Assembly: GCA_041663285.1 (NCBI GenBank)
Contig: JBAZSP010000001.1
Span: forward strand, 7,454 to 71,453
DNA from: Candidatus Shapirobacteria bacterium
GTDB lineage: Bacteria > Patescibacteriota > Microgenomatia > UBA12405
DNA length: 64,000 nt
Reading direction: 5' to 3'
Below the pieces are notes generated by a model. That model made no database searches and was not told the origin of the DNA. It was given only the letters and a program-made list of their open reading frames with translations. Made by a program: the position numbers and the translations under genes. How positions within the stretch are numbered: the stretch's first letter is position 1; every line of letters starts with the position of its first letter. This document shows positions 10,068-21,434 of this stretch, in pieces.

Positions 10068-11291
10068 ATGTCAAAATTACACCCTATCTCTTCAGCCCCG
10101 GTTATAAAAGCAATTCCTCAAAGGAAAAGTATCCGGTCTGCCAAAGTTACCGGCTCCAAAACCATTGCCGTTTTTGGCAGCTCCAGTAGTCTGGTTAGCC
10201 GTTTGCTTTCCCCGGCTTTTAAAGAAATTAGTCATCTCTATCCCGATGTTAACTTTTTACCGCTATCCCGGGATTCCGGCTCCAAAACGATTAATTCTTT
10301 TCCTCTTCCCACTATTTCCACCAAATGGGTCAATACCTCTGATTTCTTAAAACATCCTTCTGATTACCCTATTGACGGTGTAATTTTAGCCACTCCTACG
10401 TCAACCCATTATGAATTAGCCAGATTATTTCTTAACCGTCGCCTTCCGGTTTGGATTGAAAAGCCCATCAGTCTTCCTTGGCAAATTGACAGCATGGTTG
10501 AACTATTTTCTCAATCTCCCGATTTGTTTTTTGCGGCTGATTTTTTTATGGACAGTCCCGTTTTTCTTTATTTTCTTAAACGGTTTGATTATTTTATGGC
10601 TCAAATTGGTTCACCTCAGAAGATTGAGGGTCGTCTGGTCGAAAATTGGCCTTTAGAGCCCGGCAGGGAATGGTTGCTCGATAAAAGCATTAATGGTGGA
10701 GGCCTGGGTATGGATGTTTTAGTCCACGTATTGGCTTTAGTCTATCAGGTAATTGCCCGTTTAAACCTGCCCACGGAGTTGTGCATCGAAAAATCCGAAA
10801 AATATAAATATTTCGAACCGGGTGACAAGCTGCCTCCGGGAACTGAAGAGACCTATATGTGGATCAAGGCCACTGCCGGCGGTCTGCCCATCATTATTGA
10901 TGGTGGCAAGGGCACTGCCGATCATTACTACGGCATAAAAATCCACGGATCAAAAGGTTCGGTAGAAATATTTACCGGTACTGATGGCCGGGATACCTGT
11001 ATGCCCTATATATGCCTTGACACTGGCAAAGCTCCTAAAAAATTCTGGTCCTTTCCCGGTGGAGGTGTTGGTTACAGTGGTTTGTTTAAGGAATTTTTGG
11101 ATCTGGTTTACCATCAGCCTTCGGTTGACGCTCCGTATGCTCTCCCAGCTCGGGCCCAAACTTCCTTATTTACAGTAAAAACCCTAAGCCAAGCTTACCA
11201 GCTGGCTTCACCTACCTCACTTCTTTGCCCGCTTGGTGCCACTCCTCAAGTCCCCGAGCCAATCTTCCTTTCACCGTCATTACCCAACTAG
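10068..11291 (+). CDS. Gfo/Idh/MocA-like NAD(P)-dependent oxidoreductase (divergent)
   Basis: N-terminal nucleotide-binding segment IAVFGSSS... and the family-typical ...ILATPTSTHYELARLFLNRRLPVWIEKPIS... (EKP motif). Confidence 0.55.
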   Translation: MSKLHPISSAPVIKAIPQRKSIRSAKVTGSKTIAVFGSSSSLVSRLLSPAFKEISHLYPDVNFLPLSRDSGSKTINSFPLPTISTKWVNTSDFLKHPSDYPIDGVILATPTSTHYELARLFLNRRLPVWIEKPISLPWQIDSMVELFSQSPDLFFAADFFMDSPVFLYFLKRFDYFMAQIGSPQKIEGRLVENWPLEPGREWLLDKSINGGGLGMDVLVHVLALVYQVIARLNLPTELCIEKSEKYKYFEPGDKLPPGTEETYMWIKATAGGLPIIIDGGKGTADHYYGIKIHGSKGSVEIFTGTDGRDTCMPYICLDTGKAPKKFWSFPGGGVGYSGLFKEFLDLVYHQPSVDAPYALPARAQTSLFTVKTLSQAYQLASPTSLLCPLGATPQVPEPIFLSPSLPN

Positions 11292-14200
11292 GCGGATTGA
11301 ACTTTTTTTCTGGTCAGTAGTTTTACTAAGTAAATTACTGACACCATCCCCAGTGCCCCGCTGCTTACAAAAATTATCAGTGCCACCGGTTGAAAATTAG
11401 AGCCGGAATTATTTCCTCCACTTCTGCCGGCATCCATTTCCGTCGAAAACTCTTTAAGCCCAATGTTTGGCATTCCCGACGTATTCATCCCGCCATCAAG
11501 CGACCTAAAAATTTCAAACTGCGGCCTGATCACATCAATATCTTCCATTGGTGGGGATATGGTGGTTTCGTCAACATCATATCTATTGTCCAAAAGGGAA
11601 TTGTTTTTTAAGTTCTCTAATTGGTTTTCATTCACCAACGCAATCAGCGAAGAGTAGGGGAATATTACCTGATTCTTTTCAGCGTAGGCATGGTATGTGT
11701 CAATAATTTCCGGCTCGTTAAAATCAACCGTCCGGTTCCAAATATAAGTCAATGACGACATTAGCTCTGCCCTGGCCGCCATACTTCCCAAAAAATTATC
11801 CTCTTTTGCCCCCCAGTTTCCCATTGTTTCGCCTATCCCGATTGACTCTGGTCGGTATAGATGCCAAAAATCGCCGATAATTAGATCCTGTTCATTTGCC
11901 CCATCAGAACGGTTGATTACGTTGTCAATAATCCTATTGTTAATAGCATCTTCAATGCTATCGACGACCCCACCACCATTTTCCGCCAACCATTTAGTAA
12001 CATTTTGATTATAGGATGGGATATTATCTGGATGCCAGACATATGTTCTGTCTACTGCATACCCGGATCCCTCGGTTTTTGTATTTATTGTTTTGTCGCT
12101 GGCGATTACAATTCCAACGTCAAATCTTTCAAGATTCTTGGATCCACGGACAGACTTTATCATGTCTCCTTTCCCAAAATATATTAAACTGTCTAAAACT
12201 TGATCAATGTTGCCGCTGTCCACAACCGTTTCTTCGCTCAACCTGTCGTTAAATTTGACCAATTTTATCGAATTACCATTTATGGTTAATTCAGGATGCT
12301 TTTTTACAAACTTTTTTATCTGCTGTATTTTTGGATTGTTCTTATTGTCCATGGACACATCATAAAAAAATACGATATTCGGCCAACCCCATGCCTCGGT
12401 TTCTGCCATCAGCAGTTTTGGTTCAGTTTCGGAGTTACATAGAAATTCTTGGTCAATCTTATAATCTGTTCCATATGGTATTAATTCAGCCTTTTTCCCG
12501 CTTTCGTCAGCCAGCGTAATTTTTTTATTCAGGTTACATAATTTTTCTCCCAAACCAGCTACTTCAACGTATTGATCGCTCCATTTTAAGGTACTCTTAC
12601 CATTCTCCGTTGACAGGCTAATTTTTACTTTACTAACATCCAGGTTTGTCAGTTTCGAGTATACGGGCAAGGCATAACCCGCCGCCCGCCCGGAAACTAC
12701 ATAACTAAATTTTACTTTCTGGTGCTTTCCACCGAGAGTGACAACATCGGTTGATGCCGGAACTGGGAATACCCTTAATCGGTATTGTCTCGGCCCCACC
12801 TGTTCCAGAAGCGCCGGGTCACGACTTTTATCAACCTCTCTCTGATAGGTTTTGGTCGCCGCCCCGCTTGGAGCGATTATCCCCTCAAACTCCAAATTTG
12901 GCCCTAACTTTAATTCATTTATGGCCGCTTCGTTAGGTAGTGAAAATTCATAAATCACTTCTTCTGATCTCGATGAATTGCTGGTAAATTCATCGGTAAT
13001 TTCAACTTTGGCAACTACTCCGTCGTGTTCAGTAGTCAGGTTTATTAACCGGTTATCTAAATTAATCCGGCTTGGGATTCTGGCTATCGTCTGTTTCTTT
13101 AGAATATCTTGTGATATCTTAGCGTCATCGGTGCTGCTACTATAGTAATGGCTCCCGAATATGCTGTAATAATTTACTGTTAAGTCGTTAATGCTACTTC
13201 TGCTTTGACGCAAAACAAAAGGGTAGGCTGCCATCTTAAACCAGGATTGAATACGCTCACTCGCCCTCTCGCTTGTCCCTACATTCTTATAAGCTTGGGC
13301 TAAAAAATTATCGTCATTTGTCAGCGGGTAACTTTCCAGCAAATCAAGATATTCATCAATGGATTTTTTAACCAATTCCTGATTTTTACCCAGCTCTCTG
13401 GCGACTATCTCCTTTTCTTCAAATGTGTATGCTCTCCCAAAACTTTCTAACTTCCTTATTACATACCCTTGCCTTGGTTGGTACGAAAGGAATTCCATTA
13501 TCGTAATCGCCGTTACTGTCGTGACAATCAAAAAAGCATCCATTCTTACCCGCCCCCATTTAGCAATCGCCTGATGCACCAATCGATACCAATTTTTAGC
13601 CAAAATCGCCGTTACTATATAAGGTGTTGAAATTATCACTGCTCCAATAAGAGTTGGCACCAATCTAGTCAATAAAATTGCTAGGGTACTGCCTATACTC
13701 ACTTCACCGTAATATCGTCCACTAATAAGTTCCAGTAAATATTTAATCCAGCCCATTCCGATAGCCGGAACAAAAAAAGACCAAAGTAGTGTCATGTACC
13801 CTGTAATAAATAGGAACATCTCATTAATTAGCAATTTTCCGGCTAAAAGCTTCTCGTCCGAACTATTTTCTGTTTCCAGATACAATACAAACGGTAGCGC
13901 CATTACTGCCAAAGCCGGAGGCCACATGGCTGGTATAGTCCTTACCGCCATCTCGGATATTGTTAGGGATATCAGCACCGTCGGTATCTCAAATATAAAA
14001 AACAATTTTCCCAATTCTGTATTTTTTCTTTTCACCGCCCAAAATACCGCCAAAATAGGAGCTAAAAACATCACCCCCAGTGCAAGCTGTCTTACCGTGT
14101 CAATTTCTTTTAGCTCACCCAACAATCCCGTCGCCGAATCGGGTATGTCGCCCAATGTTAATAAAAATAATATTAAAAGTATCCCAAAAAATAGGTTATA

Positions 14201-14545
14201 ACCCCAAAAAATAAATTTCATAATCAATTCTCCGCTAAGCTTCGGTCTAGCAGTATTTTTATTAACCGCTTCACTTACTTCCATATTGTCCAGGAGTATT
14301 TCAACGGCTATTTGTTGGATCCTCTCCTCAAATCCTTTTGGGGTCACGTCCTTTTTGCCGGCCATCAGCCTGATTATCCCGCTGGCGCTATCAATACTGA
14401 CTAGGGCGGTTTTTTCCGACTTGGGGTAATTTCGAAAATAATCAACCAATATTTGGGCCGAGATCGTTTTTGCCAGCCTTGGCCACCCGGTATCGCTTTT
14501 TGTCGCCAACTCTATCAGCTTAACCAGTTCTTCTCTTTTATTCAT
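11288..14545 (-). CDS. Large (1085 aa) polytopic membrane protein of unknown function, with a ~700-aa extracytoplasmic region and C-terminal TM anchor
   Basis: Long uninterrupted ORF. Soluble N-terminal ~100 aa, about 8-9 predicted TM helices, large hydrophilic domain, C-terminal hydrophobic helix + KK tail. No family motif recognised. Confidence 0.6.
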   Translation of the reverse strand: MNKREELVKLIELATKSDTGWPRLAKTISAQILVDYFRNYPKSEKTALVSIDSASGIIRLMAGKKDVTPKGFEERIQQIAVEILLDNMEVSEAVNKNTARPKLSGELIMKFIFWGYNLFFGILLILFLLTLGDIPDSATGLLGELKEIDTVRQLALGVMFLAPILAVFWAVKRKNTELGKLFFIFEIPTVLISLTISEMAVRTIPAMWPPALAVMALPFVLYLETENSSDEKLLAGKLLINEMFLFITGYMTLLWSFFVPAIGMGWIKYLLELISGRYYGEVSIGSTLAILLTRLVPTLIGAVIISTPYIVTAILAKNWYRLVHQAIAKWGRVRMDAFLIVTTVTAITIMEFLSYQPRQGYVIRKLESFGRAYTFEEKEIVARELGKNQELVKKSIDEYLDLLESYPLTNDDNFLAQAYKNVGTSERASERIQSWFKMAAYPFVLRQSRSSINDLTVNYYSIFGSHYYSSSTDDAKISQDILKKQTIARIPSRINLDNRLINLTTEHDGVVAKVEITDEFTSNSSRSEEVIYEFSLPNEAAINELKLGPNLEFEGIIAPSGAATKTYQREVDKSRDPALLEQVGPRQYRLRVFPVPASTDVVTLGGKHQKVKFSYVVSGRAAGYALPVYSKLTNLDVSKVKISLSTENGKSTLKWSDQYVEVAGLGEKLCNLNKKITLADESGKKAELIPYGTDYKIDQEFLCNSETEPKLLMAETEAWGWPNIVFFYDVSMDNKNNPKIQQIKKFVKKHPELTINGNSIKLVKFNDRLSEETVVDSGNIDQVLDSLIYFGKGDMIKSVRGSKNLERFDVGIVIASDKTINTKTEGSGYAVDRTYVWHPDNIPSYNQNVTKWLAENGGGVVDSIEDAINNRIIDNVINRSDGANEQDLIIGDFWHLYRPESIGIGETMGNWGAKEDNFLGSMAARAELMSSLTYIWNRTVDFNEPEIIDTYHAYAEKNQVIFPYSSLIALVNENQLENLKNNSLLDNRYDVDETTISPPMEDIDVIRPQFEIFRSLDGGMNTSGMPNIGLKEFSTEMDAGRSGGNNSGSNFQPVALIIFVSSGALGMVSVIYLVKLLTRKKVQSA

Positions 14546-14662: not shown

Positions 14663-15541
14663 ATGATTTGTCCCAAATGCGGCAAGGATCTCTTGGATAA
14701 AGCGAAATTTTGTAAATATTGCGGCCACTCTCTGATGGCTGGAACTCCACCTGTGCCGCCTCAAGGTCCTTCGCCCCAACAGCCATTAGCCTCAATCTCT
14801 TCAGAGATTACCAATACTTCCGGCCAGGGCGAAACAGCCATTGTCCCTCCGGAATTAAGCGGTTGGAATTGGGCTGCTCTGCTGTGGACTTGGATATGGG
14901 CCATCAGTCACCGGGTCTGGATCGGCCTGATTTGTATTATTCCAATTCCAATTGTCAGTCTGGTTATGCAAGTAATTCTTGGAATAAACGGCAATAAATG
15001 GGCTTGGCAAAACAAAAAATGGCAGAGTGTCGACGATTTTAAAAAATCCCAGCGTAAATGGGTAAAAGCTTATTTTATTCTGCTCCTCCTGCTTCTTGCC
15101 TTTAGTCTAGGTATAACCTTTTTGCTTGTCGCTATTAACCCCGGGGGCAAACTAAACGAATCCAAAGATGCTAAAACAATAAACGACATCACTACCATTA
15201 AGGCGGTTGTCAACCAGAGTTATATTTCTCAAACTGCCTATCCCTGGGAGCAATCCGGTTCCGGCGGCGAAACTTATTTTACCGCTGATTTGGCCAAGGA
15301 AAGCTGGCTAAACGGCCTGATTGCCACTGGTGATCTTTCCTCCTCTACTGCAGCTGGCTTTTTGGAGGACCCGCCCCTGGCCTTGGTAAGTCGCTTTGGA
15401 CAGCCGGATTTTGTCATCTGTTTTCAGCCACAGTCAAAAACCTATCAGCTCCGGGCATCCGACAGCTGCCAAAACTTTGTCAGCGCCACCAGACCTTATT
15501 TGGATCCCTGTCAGGCCGGCAAAAGTTATTACTGTTACTAA
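14663..15541 (+). CDS. Zinc-ribbon domain membrane protein (hypothetical)
   Basis: N-terminal CPKCG...CKYCG zinc ribbon, Pro-rich linker, 2-3 TM helices. Confidence 0.5.
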   Translation: MICPKCGKDLLDKAKFCKYCGHSLMAGTPPVPPQGPSPQQPLASISSEITNTSGQGETAIVPPELSGWNWAALLWTWIWAISHRVWIGLICIIPIPIVSLVMQVILGINGNKWAWQNKKWQSVDDFKKSQRKWVKAYFILLLLLLAFSLGITFLLVAINPGGKLNESKDAKTINDITTIKAVVNQSYISQTAYPWEQSGSGGETYFTADLAKESWLNGLIATGDLSSSTAAGFLEDPPLALVSRFGQPDFVICFQPQSKTYQLRASDSCQNFVSATRPYLDPCQAGKSYYCY

Positions 15542-15544
15542 GGG

Positions 15545-17050
15545 ATGCCCTTGGTCTATTTTTTACTCTCCCTATCTCCCTTTCTGTTGTTTTTGCTACT
15601 GCTTCTTGGTTACCGTAGCCCTTTAACCCGGGCTTCATTGACTACCCTACTTTACTCAACTGTTTTAAAGCTGGTTGTCTGGCAAATATATCCTTCGACT
15701 TTCTTCACTGCCCTCCAAAAAGGATTTTTTGTCGCTTTGGACATCCTGATCATCATTGCCGGGGCTATCTTTTTTATGAAAGTATTGGATTATTTTCAGG
15801 TGCTTCAGCGGATTGGATTACATCTTGAATCAATTTCTGCCGATTACCGGGTTCAGGTTATTCTTCTGGCCTGGTTTTTTCAGGCATTTCTCGAAGGCAC
15901 TGCCGGCTTTGGTACTCCCGCCGCGGTGGTTGGTCCCCTTTTAGTAGGCCTTGGCCTTTCTCCCCTAAACGCCGCTGTTATCGCTCTATTGGGCAATAGC
16001 ACTGCCGGAGTTTTTGGTGCCGCCGGCACTCCCATCCGGATTGGCTTCGCCGGTCTGGACATTTTTTTAGTCGATAAATACGCCGCTTTTTTAAACTATA
16101 TCGGGTTGATAGTTCCCATTTTTATACTATGGAAGCTGGTATCGCCTTATCCGAACCGTCAGCAGCAGTTTAAAGAAGCCCTGCCTTTTGCCTTTTGGTC
16201 GGGGTTGGTGTTTGTGGTTTCTTCCTTTATTACCGTTTTCTTGGGCCAGGAATTCCCCTCAATCATTGGATCTCTTTTGGCCTTGCTGATAATTATTGTA
16301 TCCATCAGGCTTAAAATTTTTACTCCACCCGTAATTCGCCTGTCTTCCCGAAAGCATCTTACCCGCTCTTCCGGCTCCGTTATGGCCGACATTTTTCCCT
16401 ACCTTGGCCTGATAACTCTGTTGCTTTTAGGTAAGTTGCTATTGCGGGATTCTGGCCTGACCTTGGCTTGGGGAGTTTTTAATCACCGTTTCTCCTTTTT
16501 TAACCCCGGCTTTGCCTTTCTGTTGGCTGGTCTGGTTTATGCTGTTATTTATCTCAAAAATTCCGCCCAAATTCTTAAACTATTTACCGCCTCCGTCCGC
16601 CAGTCCCTCTCACCCTTTTTAGTCATCGCTTCCATGTCGGTGGTTACCCAGCTCATGATTAATTCAGCCCAAAATTATTCCGGTCTCATGTCGTCTTTAA
16701 GCTATATCTCTTCCGGCCTAACCTCACCCCTTTTGCCGATTGTGGCGCCTTTTATAGGAGCCTTCGGTAGTTTTATTACCGGCAGTGTCACCCTTTCTAA
16801 TCTAATGTTTGGTAGCCTGATTCATCAATCGTCTTTAGCCCAAAACATCAGTCCGCCTCTAGTCTTGTCTCTTCAGATTATTGGCGCCGCCGCCGGCAAC
16901 ATGATTGCCCTGGCCGACATTCTCACTGCCGAAACCATCCTGGGCCTAAAAAATCAGGAACGCCATATCCTCAAAGCCGTCATTTTCCCCTGTTTTGTCT
17001 ATCTTGCAATTACCGCCTTGGTCGGTTTTCTTTTAGTTACACTACTCTAA
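15545..17050 (+). CDS. lctP: L-lactate permease (LctP family) transporter
   Basis: 501 aa polytopic. Conserved LctP block ...EGTAGFGTPAAVVGPLLVGLG... and ...GAFGSFITGS... Confidence 0.8.
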   Translation: MPLVYFLLSLSPFLLFLLLLLGYRSPLTRASLTTLLYSTVLKLVVWQIYPSTFFTALQKGFFVALDILIIIAGAIFFMKVLDYFQVLQRIGLHLESISADYRVQVILLAWFFQAFLEGTAGFGTPAAVVGPLLVGLGLSPLNAAVIALLGNSTAGVFGAAGTPIRIGFAGLDIFLVDKYAAFLNYIGLIVPIFILWKLVSPYPNRQQQFKEALPFAFWSGLVFVVSSFITVFLGQEFPSIIGSLLALLIIIVSIRLKIFTPPVIRLSSRKHLTRSSGSVMADIFPYLGLITLLLLGKLLLRDSGLTLAWGVFNHRFSFFNPGFAFLLAGLVYAVIYLKNSAQILKLFTASVRQSLSPFLVIASMSVVTQLMINSAQNYSGLMSSLSYISSGLTSPLLPIVAPFIGAFGSFITGSVTLSNLMFGSLIHQSSLAQNISPPLVLSLQIIGAAAGNMIALADILTAETILGLKNQERHILKAVIFPCFVYLAITALVGFLLVTLL

Positions 17051-17066
17051 ATATCGCCACATAGCC

Positions 17067-17942
17067 CTATCTTTGCTTGTCTACCATTTGCGCCAATGAT
17101 TGGTAGCCCAACAATCGGTTGATTTTATTTTTGGCCAATTCACCATTACGCTTCTGAAACTCCATCGCCCGGATTATTCTTCTTAACTTCCTGTCCAAGT
17201 TTACTTTCTTATTAACCACCAGCCCGGTTACGGTTTGTTTTTGATGTTGCCGTTGAATTCGAACTTTTTTCTTTTTTTGGATTTCAAAGCCTTCATCTTT
17301 TATAATCGCCGCGATTTTTTTTAATACCACCCTTTGCTTACGGCCGAAGACCTTAAAAGAAAAAGTCAGGTCGTCAGCATACCGGCTATAACTCCCTTCG
17401 TATTTTAAGGCCAATCTGGTCATTCTCTGGTCCATTTTGTAGTTAACCAAGTTACTCAACGCCGGGCTAGTTGGGGCTCCCTGCGGTAGTCGGGCATTGC
17501 TGGTGCAGATGTTAGTCAAGATTCTAGCCACCGTTTTTCCCCAGCCAATTTTCCTAAAATATTTTTTGATTTTGGTTTGATTTATGCTCGGAAAAAAGTC
17601 TTTCAAGTCCAGATTTATGACTACCGCCTTGCCGGTATGGTTTTTGGCATTGTCGACAATCGATTTCCGGTACCGAAATCCTAAACAGGCAGGATGGGGT
17701 TGCAAGTATCGTAAGAATTTTTGGTGTACCCCTCTCTGCAGTTTTTTCAGTTCACTGTCGGGAGCTTCGATTTGTCTATAACCCCGCTTGTTTCTTTTGG
17801 GTATTTCAAAGGTGGTGTATCCATACCTTTCTGGTTTGCCAAGTTCCCATTCTTTCAGGCTTTCAGTTGCCAAGCCCAACTGCTTGGCCAATTCTTCTGT
17901 CGTTTTACCCCCCTCGAAAAGTTTTGCGATCCAGTTGGTCAT
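17067..17942 (-). CDS. Retron-type reverse transcriptase (Ec86-like clade), 291 aa
   Basis: RT domain motifs in retron-specific form: NAKNHTG, NLDLKDFFPSI (cf. Ec86 NIDLEDFFPSL), LPQGAPTSPALSNL (QGxxxSP, cf. Ec86 LPQGAPSSPKLANL), YSRYADDLTFS (YADD catalytic box), and the retron-specific VTG motif (QTVTGLVVN). The ATG lies 9 nt downstream of the a2 inverted repeat of the adjacent ncRNA. Confidence 0.85.
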   Translation of the reverse strand: MTNWIAKLFEGGKTTEELAKQLGLATESLKEWELGKPERYGYTTFEIPKRNKRGYRQIEAPDSELKKLQRGVHQKFLRYLQPHPACLGFRYRKSIVDNAKNHTGKAVVINLDLKDFFPSINQTKIKKYFRKIGWGKTVARILTNICTSNARLPQGAPTSPALSNLVNYKMDQRMTRLALKYEGSYSRYADDLTFSFKVFGRKQRVVLKKIAAIIKDEGFEIQKKKKVRIQRQHQKQTVTGLVVNKKVNLDRKLRRIIRAMEFQKRNGELAKNKINRLLGYQSLAQMVDKQR

Positions 17943-17950
17943 AAAAATGT

Positions 17951-18089
17951 TTTCAGGCGCTTTGCCTAATCCTTGAAATAAATCGCAGATTTATTTCAAG
18001 GATTAACCTAATTCAAGCACAGCACGTCAGTGCCCGGCCAACGATAACATCGGCCTATACCAGTGAAGGTATCACCAAAGCGCCTGAAA
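17951..18089 (-). ncRNA. Candidate retron msr-msd non-coding RNA, flanked by 14-bp a1/a2 inverted repeats
   Basis: On the minus strand, TTTCAGGCGCTTTG (18089..18076) and its perfect reverse complement CAAAGCGCCTGAAA (17964..17951) flank 111 nt. A G directly 3' of a1 is the candidate branching G. Internal hairpins: ATACC/GGTAT, GGCCGAT..ATCG(TT)GGCC, GCAC-TGAC-GTGC, and a 17-bp perfect stem with 5-nt loop (plus-strand 17967-18005) typical of an msd stem. Located immediately 5' of the RT gene, as in Ec86-type retrons. Confidence 0.6.
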
Positions 18090-18104
18090 TTTAAATAGCT
18101 TCTG

Positions 18105-18110
18105 ATTATA
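18105..18110 (-). promoter_or_regulatory. Candidate -10 box (TATAAT on the minus strand), ~15 nt upstream of the a1 repeat of the retron ncRNA
   Basis: Perfect TATAAT hexamer (reverse complement of plus 18105-18110), positioned to start transcription a few nt before a1. A TTGGCA lies upstream with a short (13 nt) spacer. Overlaps the last codons of the upstream ORF. Confidence 0.25.
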
Positions 18111-18116
18111 CAACTC

Positions 18117-18740
18117 TTACAATTGCCAAGGGGCGGTCGGTTTCGGTGTCGTCTTTATAAACGGCTTGATTCCGCCTGTCGGCAACGCCATTCCGGTCGG
18201 CATGGCCGGGATATTTGATTTTATTATTTCCTTTATCTCTTCCTTAGTAATGTAACCGTCGGCACAATACGCTTGGTCTTCCAACACCTTAGTAAAGGTT
18301 TCACAATTCAACCCCATTCCGTATTTGTTTCCTTCTCCTTGGCTGAATTGCGTTCCCATGCCGATTGGTGTTGGGTCAGCCTCGTCGCCGCTGCACATAA
18401 AATCAAAAAACTTTTTAGCAGTTTCGCATGGCATCCCCTTGCTTATCCCGTTAATCTTCCCTCCACTCGGCATAGTCCAGCCCGTTTCCTGAGTTTGACC
18501 ATCCCACTTCCAGCCCTGTTCGTTTACCGTATCAGTCGGAAATTTTTTTCCGGCTCCTCCATTTCTAGGCGTTTCCGGCATCGTGTTAGTCGAAAACCTG
18601 CTCAGAATACTTTGCCAGCTCAAACCCAGTACTTCCGCATCCAGCCTGTCTGACCAGAATTGGGCTCCCTGAAAAAGAGCTACGGCAAAAAGTGATAACG
18701 CCCCCAAAACTACATAAAAATGGTTACTGTTTTCTTTCAT
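18117..18740 (-). CDS. Hypothetical secreted or membrane-anchored Cys-containing protein (207 aa), co-oriented immediately upstream of the retron ncRNA
   Basis: N-terminal signal-anchor (HFYVVLGALSLFAVALF), Gly/Trp-rich middle, 4 Cys (CETAKKFFDFMC...NCETF...YCADGY). No recognisable family. Its stop is 27 nt from a1. Confidence 0.5.
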   Translation of the reverse strand: MKENSNHFYVVLGALSLFAVALFQGAQFWSDRLDAEVLGLSWQSILSRFSTNTMPETPRNGGAGKKFPTDTVNEQGWKWDGQTQETGWTMPSGGKINGISKGMPCETAKKFFDFMCSGDEADPTPIGMGTQFSQGEGNKYGMGLNCETFTKVLEDQAYCADGYITKEEIKEIIKSNIPAMPTGMALPTGGIKPFIKTTPKPTAPWQL

Positions 18741-18811
18741 ATTACTAAAACTATGGATTATAAGTTACCAAAAGTCAACAACCACACCTGCACCTTCTCC
18801 AACCACAAAAT

Positions 18812-18833
18812 ACCCCCGACTTTCATCGGGGGT
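18812..18833 (-). terminator. Hairpin (7-bp CCCCCGA/TCGGGGG stem) downstream of the RRM gene
   Basis: Read on the minus strand: ACCCCCGATGAAAGTCGGGGGT followed by AUUUUGUGG. Separates the RRM gene from the 207-aa ORF and retron unit. Confidence 0.4.
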
Positions 18834-18866
18834 ATCCGGTTTAACAAAGAAAACAAAAAAACTTAC

Positions 18867-19211
18867 TTAGTTTCTCCAGTTTCCATTATTTCCGCCGCGG
18901 TTTCCGCCGCCAAAGCCTTGGCGTGGTCCACTCCGGGAGTAGTTATCTCTGGGTGGTCTATCTTCCATTGGTCGGGCTTCGTTGACTTTGATTGTTCTGC
19001 CGTCCAATTCTTTTTCATTCCACATTTCAATCGCTGCTTGAGCTTGTTCTTCTGTTTCCATCTCTACAAATCCAAAACCTTTGGATCTGCCGGAGAATTT
19101 ATCCATTATAACAACTGCCGAAACTACTGTTCCGGCTTGGGCAAATGCTGCCGCTAGGGATTGATCGGTGGTTGAGTAAGACAGGCCGCCGACATAAAGT
19201 TTTTTAGCCAT
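18867..19211 (-). CDS. RRM-domain glycine-rich RNA-binding protein
   Basis: RNP-2 LYVGGL and RNP-1 KGFGFVEM motifs. C-terminal RGG/Gly-Asn-rich tail. Confidence 0.85.
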   Translation of the reverse strand: MAKKLYVGGLSYSTTDQSLAAAFAQAGTVVSAVVIMDKFSGRSKGFGFVEMETEEQAQAAIEMWNEKELDGRTIKVNEARPMEDRPPRDNYSRSGPRQGFGGGNRGGNNGNWRN

Positions 19212-19521
19212 TTTTGGTTAAAAATAATTAATATGTAAGCGACCTCTTTTCTACAATTAACTTTCGAAAAATTCTACCTACCCTTGTATTTTAACCTAAC
19301 ATATGGAAATACACAAATACGAAGCTTTCACTATGGGTAGTCCCGCCTCAGCCAGAATGACTCTTTTAGTTGTAAACATTTGAAATCTATACTACTCTTA
19401 TTTCAGGATAGGCAAAAACCGTGAGTAATTCGCTTACCCTTTGGTTTCTTATTATTTCCATATAACCGACTTAGTTACTTTAAAAAATAATAGAAGTTTT
19501 TGCTCTCCAAACACTACTTAA

Positions 19522-20301: not shown

Positions 20302-20937
20302 ATGAAGCCCTGCCCCCAGTGTACAGTTCTAAATCCTGAAGACAGTATCTATTGTCAGGAGTGTGGCCACAAACTGGTTAATTTTGGCGCCAAACTTACC
20401 CGCTCCGGTAAACGTTCATCAAGTCTGTCCAAGGAGCTGGAAGCCGGCCTTGGTCCTGTCTTTGTCCCACCCCAAAGATCACATTCGTTGGCTTTTATGT
20501 TTTTTGGAGCCGTTGTCTTGGCCATAACTTTTTTGGCCATCCTCGGCTCCGTTGTCGGTTCCGACGACGTTGACCGCCTGTCGTCATTGTCAAATACCAA
20601 AGTCTCGCCATCAGTTAAGTCAGCGGTCCCTCTCACCAATTTATCTCTAACCGGCATTGACTCCGAATGGCGGGGTACTTACCCCCAGTCGGTTTTTTAC
20701 GTCAATGGCACTATAACCAACAACTCTGCCACTTCTGTCCGCAACACCATGCTACGGGTTGATTTTTATTGGGATAAAGATCTTACCGATATTTTTGATA
20801 CCCGTTATTTGAAGATCACTACCGCCATTTCCTCCAACAATCGCCATTCTTTTTCCCACCCGATCTCCGGCTTCTTTCCCAAAGACAATAAAAACTTTTG
20901 GTATCTGGTTACCGTTATTAGTTCCGAAAAAGATTAA
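20302..20937 (+). CDS. Zinc-ribbon domain membrane protein (hypothetical)
   Basis: CPQC...CQECG zinc ribbon at N-terminus, one TM, extracytoplasmic domain. Confidence 0.5.
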   Translation: MKPCPQCTVLNPEDSIYCQECGHKLVNFGAKLTRSGKRSSSLSKELEAGLGPVFVPPQRSHSLAFMFFGAVVLAITFLAILGSVVGSDDVDRLSSLSNTKVSPSVKSAVPLTNLSLTGIDSEWRGTYPQSVFYVNGTITNNSATSVRNTMLRVDFYWDKDLTDIFDTRYLKITTAISSNNRHSFSHPISGFFPKDNKNFWYLVTVISSEKD

Positions 20938-21434
20938 TGGGTTGCCATAAGTGTCATAAGGAAATTAGTCCTGCCGCCAAATTCTGCAATTATTGCGGCG
21001 AACCGGTACTAGCTTTGGCCACTCTTCCGGCTCCTTCAGGGCTTCGTTTCCTCAACCTCTTTCTTGACAATATTTTCCAATATTCGATTATTTTCGTATT
21101 AGTAATTGCCTTTTCTTTAGTAAAAGTTCTTCTGTCCAAAGAACCTTCTTACGACCCGTCCTTTGAGCAAGTCCTGGCATCAATCCTTCGCCCAGCCATT
21201 CTTGTCCTCCATTTTGTTTATTATATTTCCTCTGAAGCCTTGTGGCAGCGCAGCCCGGCAAAGTTTATCACCGGCACCAAGGTAGTAAGTAGCACCGGCG
21301 GCAAACCTCTTATTTCTCAAATTATTATTCGCTCACTTTGCCGGCTCATCCCCTTTGAACACTTTTCCTTTTTTGGTAAGAATCCGGTTGGCCTCCACGA
21401 CAAGATATCCAAAACTATCGTTGTCAAAGCTTAG
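20937..21434 (+). CDS. Zinc-ribbon + polytopic membrane protein (RDD-like?)
   Basis: CHKC...CNYCG zinc ribbon followed by 3 hydrophobic helices. RDD-family resemblance is weak. Confidence 0.45.
   Translation: MGCHKCHKEISPAAKFCNYCGEPVLALATLPAPSGLRFLNLFLDNIFQYSIIFVLVIAFSLVKVLLSKEPSYDPSFEQVLASILRPAILVLHFVYYISSEALWQRSPAKFITGTKVVSSTGGKPLISQIIIRSLCRLIPFEHFSFFGKNPVGLHDKISKTIVVKA

Follow-up and report, generated by a model that had tools for sequence, protein, structure and literature searches.

Retrons that consist only of a non-coding RNA (ncRNA; msr-msd) and a reverse transcriptase (RT) are already known. Such stand-alone cassettes have been described in the clade 2 branch of Retron-Eco5 (Ec107) and in clade 11 (Mestre 2020, PMC7736814). 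In its treatment of orphan retrons that survey asks whether they have effectors encoded in trans or another function, and it also reports that effectors have been exchanged among retron RT clades. Among type XI-like RTs 207 of 232 lack the protease, and loss of the protease within this group has been proposed (Toro 2026, bioRxiv 10.64898/2026.05.14.725207). The latter preprint describes two lineages whose hosts are Bacteroidota and Bacillota and whose partners are WYL or DnaB_C proteins, and states that no type XI ncRNA had been found earlier. Here we analyze a retron in the genome of a Candidatus Shapirobacteria bacterium (assembly GCA_041663285.1). It is located on a stretch of 64,000 nucleotides (contig JBAZSP010000001.1, positions 7,454 to 71,453), which as a whole is referred to as the window and to which all coordinates of the locus refer.

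We regard the locus as a self-contained stand-alone retron cassette, with its own promoter, an ncRNA and a minimal RT of 291 amino acids (aa), which is placed between two unrelated resident genes and has no toxin in cis; we assign this reading a probability of roughly 0.7. A preliminary description of this DNA had listed an effector-less minimal retron, perhaps a pure producer of multicopy single-stranded DNA (msDNA), among several options. This option is supported by the lack of an effector in cis, by an 11-member subclade of short RTs to which the window RT belongs and by six loci of this subclade without a common neighbor.

The cassettes of the Ec107/Eco5 branch and of clade 11 ('clade2_Ec107like' in Toro 2026) are described as having only ncRNA and RT, ordinary chromosomal neighbors and signs of vertical inheritance, all of which is also seen for the window retron. 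They differ, however, in belonging to another RT clade and another ncRNA family, and their reported hosts are Gammaproteobacteria/Bacillota and Actinobacteria, whereas the clade of the window retron is found in the candidate phyla radiation (CPR), Planctomycetota, Verrucomicrobiota and Acidobacteriota. From the two lineages of Toro 2026, as presented there, the window clade is set apart by its hosts, by the lack of a recurrent partner and by its own predicted ncRNA family; neither WYL nor DnaB_C is found among the annotated recurrent neighbor clusters described below.

Organization of the retron cassette

All parts of the cassette are located on the minus strand:

17067-17942, minus strand: retron RT gene, 291 aa, no extra domain (RVT_1, E=1.3e-23)
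17951-18089, minus strand: retron ncRNA (msr-msd), a1 through a2, supported by folding, covariation and the covariance model R1
17951-17964, minus strand: a2 arm, ending 8 nt ahead of the RT start codon
17967-18005, minus strand: msd hairpin, presumed template of the msDNA stem, 18 perfect pairs and a 3-nt loop
18072-18057, 18055-18036 and 18034-18021, minus strand: three msr stem-loops
18077-18073, minus strand: invariant TGG-G with the presumed branching G
18076-18089, minus strand: a1 arm, 14 nt, 100% complementary to 17951-17964
18105-18110, minus strand: perfect TATAAT, candidate -10 box of the retron promoter, 15 nt before a1

The RT is separated from a convergent lactate permease gene by 16 bp (17051-17066), as had been noticed before, which leaves no space for a gene downstream of the RT; the absence of a downstream effector was thereby borne out. 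Directly 5' of the RT we found the structured ncRNA expected of a retron, closed by a perfect 14-bp duplex of a1 and a2 and containing an msd hairpin. Its predicted fold has an energy of -72.5 kcal/mol, corresponding to z = -7.4 in comparison to shuffled sequences. In an Rfam scan of 16500-19500 neither a retron nor any other RNA family was recognized; the sole match was a chance hit to a lncRNA (E=0.19). Retron GC content (0.42-0.44) resembles that of the flanks, and GC composition shows no trace of a recent transfer.

We assembled 168 loci of related RTs from closest-protein look-ups, a profile scan in which each species was represented by one genome (80 loci) and a scan of metagenome contigs (80 loci). 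The profile scan succeeded, whereas a scan of genome contigs with the single sequence of the window RT returned nothing. Seventeen upstream regions could be aligned as one ncRNA family, with compensatory changes in 22 of 33 consensus pairs. The TGG-G immediately following a1 is invariant in all 17 sequences, one of its G residues being the presumed branching residue. The second hairpin of the family is nearly invariant (GGCCGATGTTTCGTCGGCC). The msd stem (alignment columns 109-166) is kept with varying sequence.

A covariance model derived from that alignment, R1, matches the window with 83.9 bits (E=1.9e-17). Directly upstream of the RT and on the same strand, R1 was detected in 96 of 164 loci as well as in all four loci added for the subclade of the window RT, i.e. 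in 100 of 168. It was detected neither in the 27 loci with a type XIII SWIM-type partner cluster nor in L165-L168, the loci discussed below for the gene upstream of the cassette. We use the common covarying ncRNA family, as predicted from the alignment, to define the clade. Two loci carry two tandem R1 matches upstream of a single RT (L141, 2089-2215 and 2388-2493; L152, 595-744 and 809-949).

Type assignment of the reverse transcriptase

The translated RT contains the motifs that characterize retron RTs, namely DNAKNH (the NAxxH of region X), RYADD and QTVTGLVVN (the VTG of region Y), in addition to LPQGAPTSP. YADD and about 55 further positions are invariant among 25 relatives. The NCBIfam model retron_St85_RT is matched with 245.6 bits (cutoff 235), and the top PADLOC matches are all retron RT models. 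The protein ends about 50 residues past region Y and has no protease domain, so that it lacks the fused protease of type XI.

PADLOC scores of the window RT are flat across the defined types: 286 bits for RT_XIII, 271/270 for RT-Protease_XI, 254/241/203 for RT_II-A, 251 for RT_III-A and 247 for RT-TIR_XII, followed by 228 for RT_outgroup and 208 for RT_Ec107-like. For calibration we used the RT of L043, a locus with a type XIII partner (CxCx12CxH SWIM motif in a 555-aa upstream protein), which scores 491 bits with RT_XIII and 299 bits with the model ranking next. In comparison to this genuine type XIII RT, the window RT with its 286 bits does not rise above generic cross-hits for any defined type. 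The RT-Protease_XI model in turn does not discriminate, since P0036, a protein with full type XI architecture, scores only 277 bits. A search of solved structures gave 130.6 bits for the Ec86 RT (E=7e-37) and 127.9 bits for the Ec67 RT-Toprim protein.

The preliminary description had expected a nucleoside 2-deoxyribosyltransferase-like (NDT) effector on the grounds that the RT resembles that of Ec86. The flat PADLOC scores and the tie between Ec86 and Ec67 remove the basis of this expectation: similarity of an RT to Ec86 does not predict an NDT partner. Among solved structures the RT is matched best by that of Retron-Eco1 (Ec86), a type II-A retron whose effector is NDT-like and whose ncRNA-RT layout is the same, but neither in the neighboring genes nor among the 48 window open reading frames (ORFs) did Pfam or PADLOC identify an NDT-like domain.

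Membership in type II-A was accordingly rejected, the II-A models scoring below those of types XIII and XI. Type XIII (RT with a SWIM/winged-helix protein, with or without HEAT/ARM) provides the best PADLOC model and the next-closest RTs, but was rejected as well: apart from the difference between 286 and 491 bits, the SWIM partner cluster is located upstream of the RT in 27 loci with RTs 35-40% identical to that of the window, is missing in the window and its subclade of the neighbor-joining (NJ) tree, and does not occur in combination with R1. Nor is an affiliation with the Ec107 branch of clade 2 or with clade 11 indicated, RT_Ec107-like and RT_outgroup scoring below the other models. As for type XI, RT-Protease_XI ranks among the best models, at cross-hit level, and the related RTs of L085 and P0036 (52% identity) are fused to Trypsin_2; L085 combines the type XI architecture with the ncRNA family of the window, whereas the window RT has no protease. 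Judging from these comparisons of scores, architecture and partners, we file the window retron under stand-alone retrons and, as it appears, outside types II-A, XI and XIII.

Genomic context of related RTs

We then looked for proteins that accompany the RT. All ORFs within 3.5 kb of an RT were clustered by BLAST. The biggest family of neighboring ORFs spans just 8 of the 96 R1-positive loci. The recurrent families have housekeeping roles and include ABC-F (two ABC_tran and ABC_tran_Xtn), sulfatase-like, PQQ-like, histidine kinase, PIG-L, Maf, BrkB, D-Ala-D-Ala ligase and SDR proteins. ABC-F, sulfatase, PQQ-like, histidine kinase and DUF1501-like proteins were considered as retron partners and rejected, as they are abundant housekeeping families or reflect synteny of kin genomes. 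Nearly all related retrons that we retrieved are thus without a partner, too, and no protein family is tied to the RT subclade, which is how stand-alone retrons are characterized in Mestre 2020.

In the NJ tree the window RT falls into a subclade of 11 members, all of which are RTs of 274-308 aa. We read six loci of this subclade (L001, L003, L169-L172): the genes next to the RT differ in every case, no neighbor being shared among the six loci or between them and the window. In L169, L170 and L172 the RT abuts a convergent gene, as it does in the window. Fixed sites were observed in kin genomes, where the retron immediately precedes an ABC-F (EttA-like) gene (six loci: L087, L090, L092, L093, L104, L108) or follows QueH (L003 and L171). 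Such fixed housekeeping sites suggest vertical inheritance rather than mobility with defense islands. Hosts of the clade are mainly Planctomycetota, accompanied by Verrucomicrobiota, Acidobacteriota, Armatimonadota, Methylomirabilis, one alphaproteobacterium and CPR. A sister subclade comprises solo RTs along with single-ORF fusions of an RT to Trypsin_2 (L085, P0036), to a CHAT/caspase-like domain (L094, L100) and to EAD5 (P0084).

Promoter and selection

In 19 of 88 related loci a perfect TATAAT was found no more than 40 nt upstream of the ncRNA, compared to 0.25% of background 45-nt windows. The box is retained even where the ncRNA has a GC content of 66-70%. A promoter scan of the window returned no good -35 element and no full -35/-10 promoter for the ncRNA, and did not list the TATAAT; the argument for the -10 box comes from comparative conservation only. 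In several relatives the gene upstream of the cassette is located on the opposite strand, so that the cassette must have its own promoter there. The conserved box and the opposite-strand neighbors argue that the cassette is probably independent of transcription from the gene upstream of it in the window.

The ratio of nonsynonymous to synonymous substitution rates (dN/dS) between pairs of solo RTs with 75-91% identity ranges from 0.05 to 0.28, with most values between 0.06 and 0.17. Judged by these ratios, the solo RTs are under purifying selection.

The upstream 207-aa protein

The genes flanking the cassette are as follows:

15545-17050, plus strand: lactate permease gene, convergent to the RT (Lactate_perm, E=7e-74)
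18117-18740, minus strand: ORF of a 207-aa signal-anchor protein with 4 Cys, judged to lie outside the retron
18778-18750, minus strand: promoter-like site of the 207-aa gene, from the promoter scan
18810-18819 and 18826-18835: arms of a hairpin between the RRM gene and the 207-aa ORF, forming a stem of 10 perfect pairs, with TTTTGT behind it on the minus strand
18867-19211, minus strand: RRM-domain gene (RRM_1, E=5e-22)

RT, ncRNA, permease, ORF, RRM gene and hairpin of the preliminary description could all be located again. The co-oriented 207-aa ORF does possess an N-terminal hydrophobic helix and exactly four Cys, and the terminator-like hairpin between it and the RRM gene is confirmed as a perfect stem, which the terminator scan does not list. 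The stop codon of the ORF and a1 are separated by a spacer of 27 nt, which contains the TATAAT. The proposal that ORF and retron form one transcription unit is compatible with the hairpin-free spacer, which would allow read-through, but is weakened by the conserved candidate -10 box of the cassette.

Neither Pfam, PADLOC nor NCBIfam gave a match for the 207-aa protein. When 1.84 billion cluster representatives were scanned exhaustively with HMMER, three homologues were identified (P0122, P0123, P0124); 5.8 billion clusters searched with a profile added none. P0122, which the profile search names as a protein of another Ca. Shapirobacteria metagenome-assembled genome (MAG), is 48% identical in matched stretches and 40% when BLAST aligns the full length. 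All four sequences can be aligned from one end to the other; they have in common a hydrophobic segment at the N terminus, two C-x10-12-C modules made up of four invariant Cys, and the motif DG(Y/F)(I/V/L)(T/S)K(E/D)EI(K/R)E. An AlphaFold2 model computed from the four-sequence alignment has a mean predicted local distance difference test (pLDDT) of 40 and a predicted template modeling score (pTM) of 0.25; a helix at the N terminus and short helices near the Cys pairs are all that it displays, and it is too poor for a fold search.

The loci of the homologues (L165, L166/L167 and L168) contain no RT detectable by tblastn and no match to the ncRNA model. In the opposite direction, none of the 168 RT loci yielded a relative when the four members of the family served as tblastn queries, so that the 207-aa gene does not regularly accompany the RT. 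The preliminary description had held that the protein would be dismissed as an effector if it were found widely without retrons; all three homologues are indeed retron-free, while a family of four is not a wide one. In L166, homologues of the window RRM gene (86% identity) and of a 292-aa zinc-ribbon protein (14663-15541 in the window) are located within 5 kb of the 207-family gene, which identifies the RRM, 292-aa and 207-family genes as resident genes of the lineage. By this synteny the window retron is intercalated into a loosely conserved resident neighborhood. On the basis of distribution and sequence we judge the 207-aa protein to be a Shapirobacteria-specific envelope or secreted protein that is probably a mere upstream neighbor and not part of the retron.

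Proposed function and alternative explanations

For a stand-alone cassette the following course can be proposed. Transcription would start a few bases past the TATAAT (18110-18105), and the ncRNA is predicted from folding and covariation to fold on the 14-bp a1/a2 duplex. By analogy to characterized retrons, the RT would bind the conserved msr hairpins, prime on the 2'-OH of the invariant G beside a1, at about position 18075, and copy the msd hairpin into a short msDNA. As no toxin is encoded in cis, the complex of RT and msDNA would be the end product of the locus, and the cassette most likely acts free of a toxin or via a factor encoded elsewhere.

Such a factor would be an effector in trans, e.g. 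a stand-alone protease, CHAT or EAD-domain protein, a possibility raised for orphan retrons in general (Mestre 2020, PMC7736814) and suggested here by the sister RTs that carry these domains in fusion. We consider it unlikely, since the protease, CHAT and EAD5 domains of the fusions, used as tblastn queries against the window, gave only noise (E>0.09), PADLOC on the 48 window ORFs (at least 150 aa) gave generic matches and no known retron-effector family, and no partner recurs within 3.5 kb of the RT across 96 loci; most hosts of orphan retrons, according to the same survey, are without homologues of known partners. Recruitment of the 207-aa membrane protein as a new lineage-specific effector, co-transcribed with ncRNA and RT, is extremely improbable. 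Its orientation, the terminator-free spacer, the lack of a functional assignment in the three databases and a membrane anchor as reported for effectors of type IV retrons (Mestre 2020, PMC7736814) would all fit, but the homologues occur in loci devoid of RT and ncRNA, no relative of the RT carries the gene, and both the retron, with its conserved -10 box, and the 207-aa gene have promoter-like elements of their own. Moreover, full length, transmembrane anchor and four Cys are conserved in the retron-free homologues, which is not expected of a toxin that depends on an antidote; the AlphaFold2 model is uninformative in this respect. The idea of a new membrane-acting effector type was therefore abandoned, which removes a false lead.

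A third explanation would be a decaying relic, in which an ancestral RT-protease of type XI-like organization has lost its toxin domain and left behind a functionless 'antitoxin' that is not yet eroded. Protease-fused RTs in the sister subclade and the protease loss proposed among type XI-like RTs (Toro 2026, 10.64898/2026.05.14.725207) are in line with this scenario. We rate it as highly improbable, because the RT motifs, the a1/a2 pairing and the 18-bp msd stem are all intact and the solo state is common to a deep subclade (48-55% identity) and to about 90 loci. dN/dS values around 0.1, compensatory changes in the ncRNA, a -10 box maintained in GC-rich genomes and the fixed sites next to QueH and ABC-F genes likewise speak for maintenance rather than decay.

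Several points weigh against the stand-alone cassette itself. The synthesis of msDNA is presumed by analogy to characterized retrons. Partners that are very small or evolve very fast would escape the BLAST analysis of raw neighboring ORFs, and the search for a trans effector covered the 64-kb window only. The NJ tree of the RTs is without support values. With three homologues of the 207-aa protein, the statistic behind its lack of linkage to RTs is small; the short hairpin-free spacer permits read-through from its gene, and the window promoter has a -10 box but no clear -35.

Given the stand-alone cassette, it is conceivable, although we can put this forward only tentatively, that the clade represents a large undescribed lineage of effector-independent retrons with R1 as its own ncRNA family, a built-in promoter, often vertical transmission at housekeeping sites and purifying selection, in which RT and msDNA have a role without a toxin in cis. 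Similarly speculative is the extent of this lineage over Planctomycetota, Verrucomicrobiota, Acidobacteriota, Chloroflexota-like MAGs and CPR. If the clade indeed has a toxin-independent function, the view of retrons would widen beyond abortive-infection systems. The window offers a clear-cut example of retrons without partners, a fairly large group that is apparently selected and not decayed, and thus bears on the role of orphan retrons as questioned in Mestre 2020. In addition, minimal RTs of 274-308 aa with compact ncRNAs may be of interest to users of retrons for DNA production in vivo.

Fused-domain relatives and further features of the window

Two of the fused relatives combine RT and CHAT in one ORF (L094, 1554-2987; L100, 1046-2473). 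Their RT parts are 47-49% identical to the window RT and have an R1 ncRNA upstream. The Pfam CHAT model is matched with 30.2 and 27.9 bits (cutoff 24), and the motifs HFSGHG and LNACYS are present. In the available portions of the Mestre 2020 and Toro 2026 surveys we did not meet this architecture among the retron types. In L085 an R1 ncRNA (454-617, 55.5 bits, with clear a1/a2) precedes the RT-Trypsin_2 ORF (672-1880), which is cut by the contig end. P0084 (411 aa) joins the RT to EAD5 (E=8e-15), an adaptor-type domain, hinting that some members of the clade recruit partners in trans.

In the window, PADLOC also reported matches to mad3 (7e-31), mad2 (1e-16) and mad8 (1e-8) of the MADS defense system, to a Cas4-like PDDEXK protein and to a methyltransferase. 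The mad and Cas4-like matches may be cross-matches, e.g. to histidine-kinase ATPases and methyltransferases of the window. Around the retron region there are three proteins with an N-terminal zinc ribbon (CPxC...CxxCG) and membrane segments, encoded at 20302-20937, at 20937-21434 and by the 292-aa gene at 14663-15541 mentioned above. A 1085-aa integral membrane protein (11288-14545, minus strand) matches TIGR02921 of the PEP-CTERM family with 169 bits, below the cutoff of 200; a match of this kind is unusual in a CPR genome.

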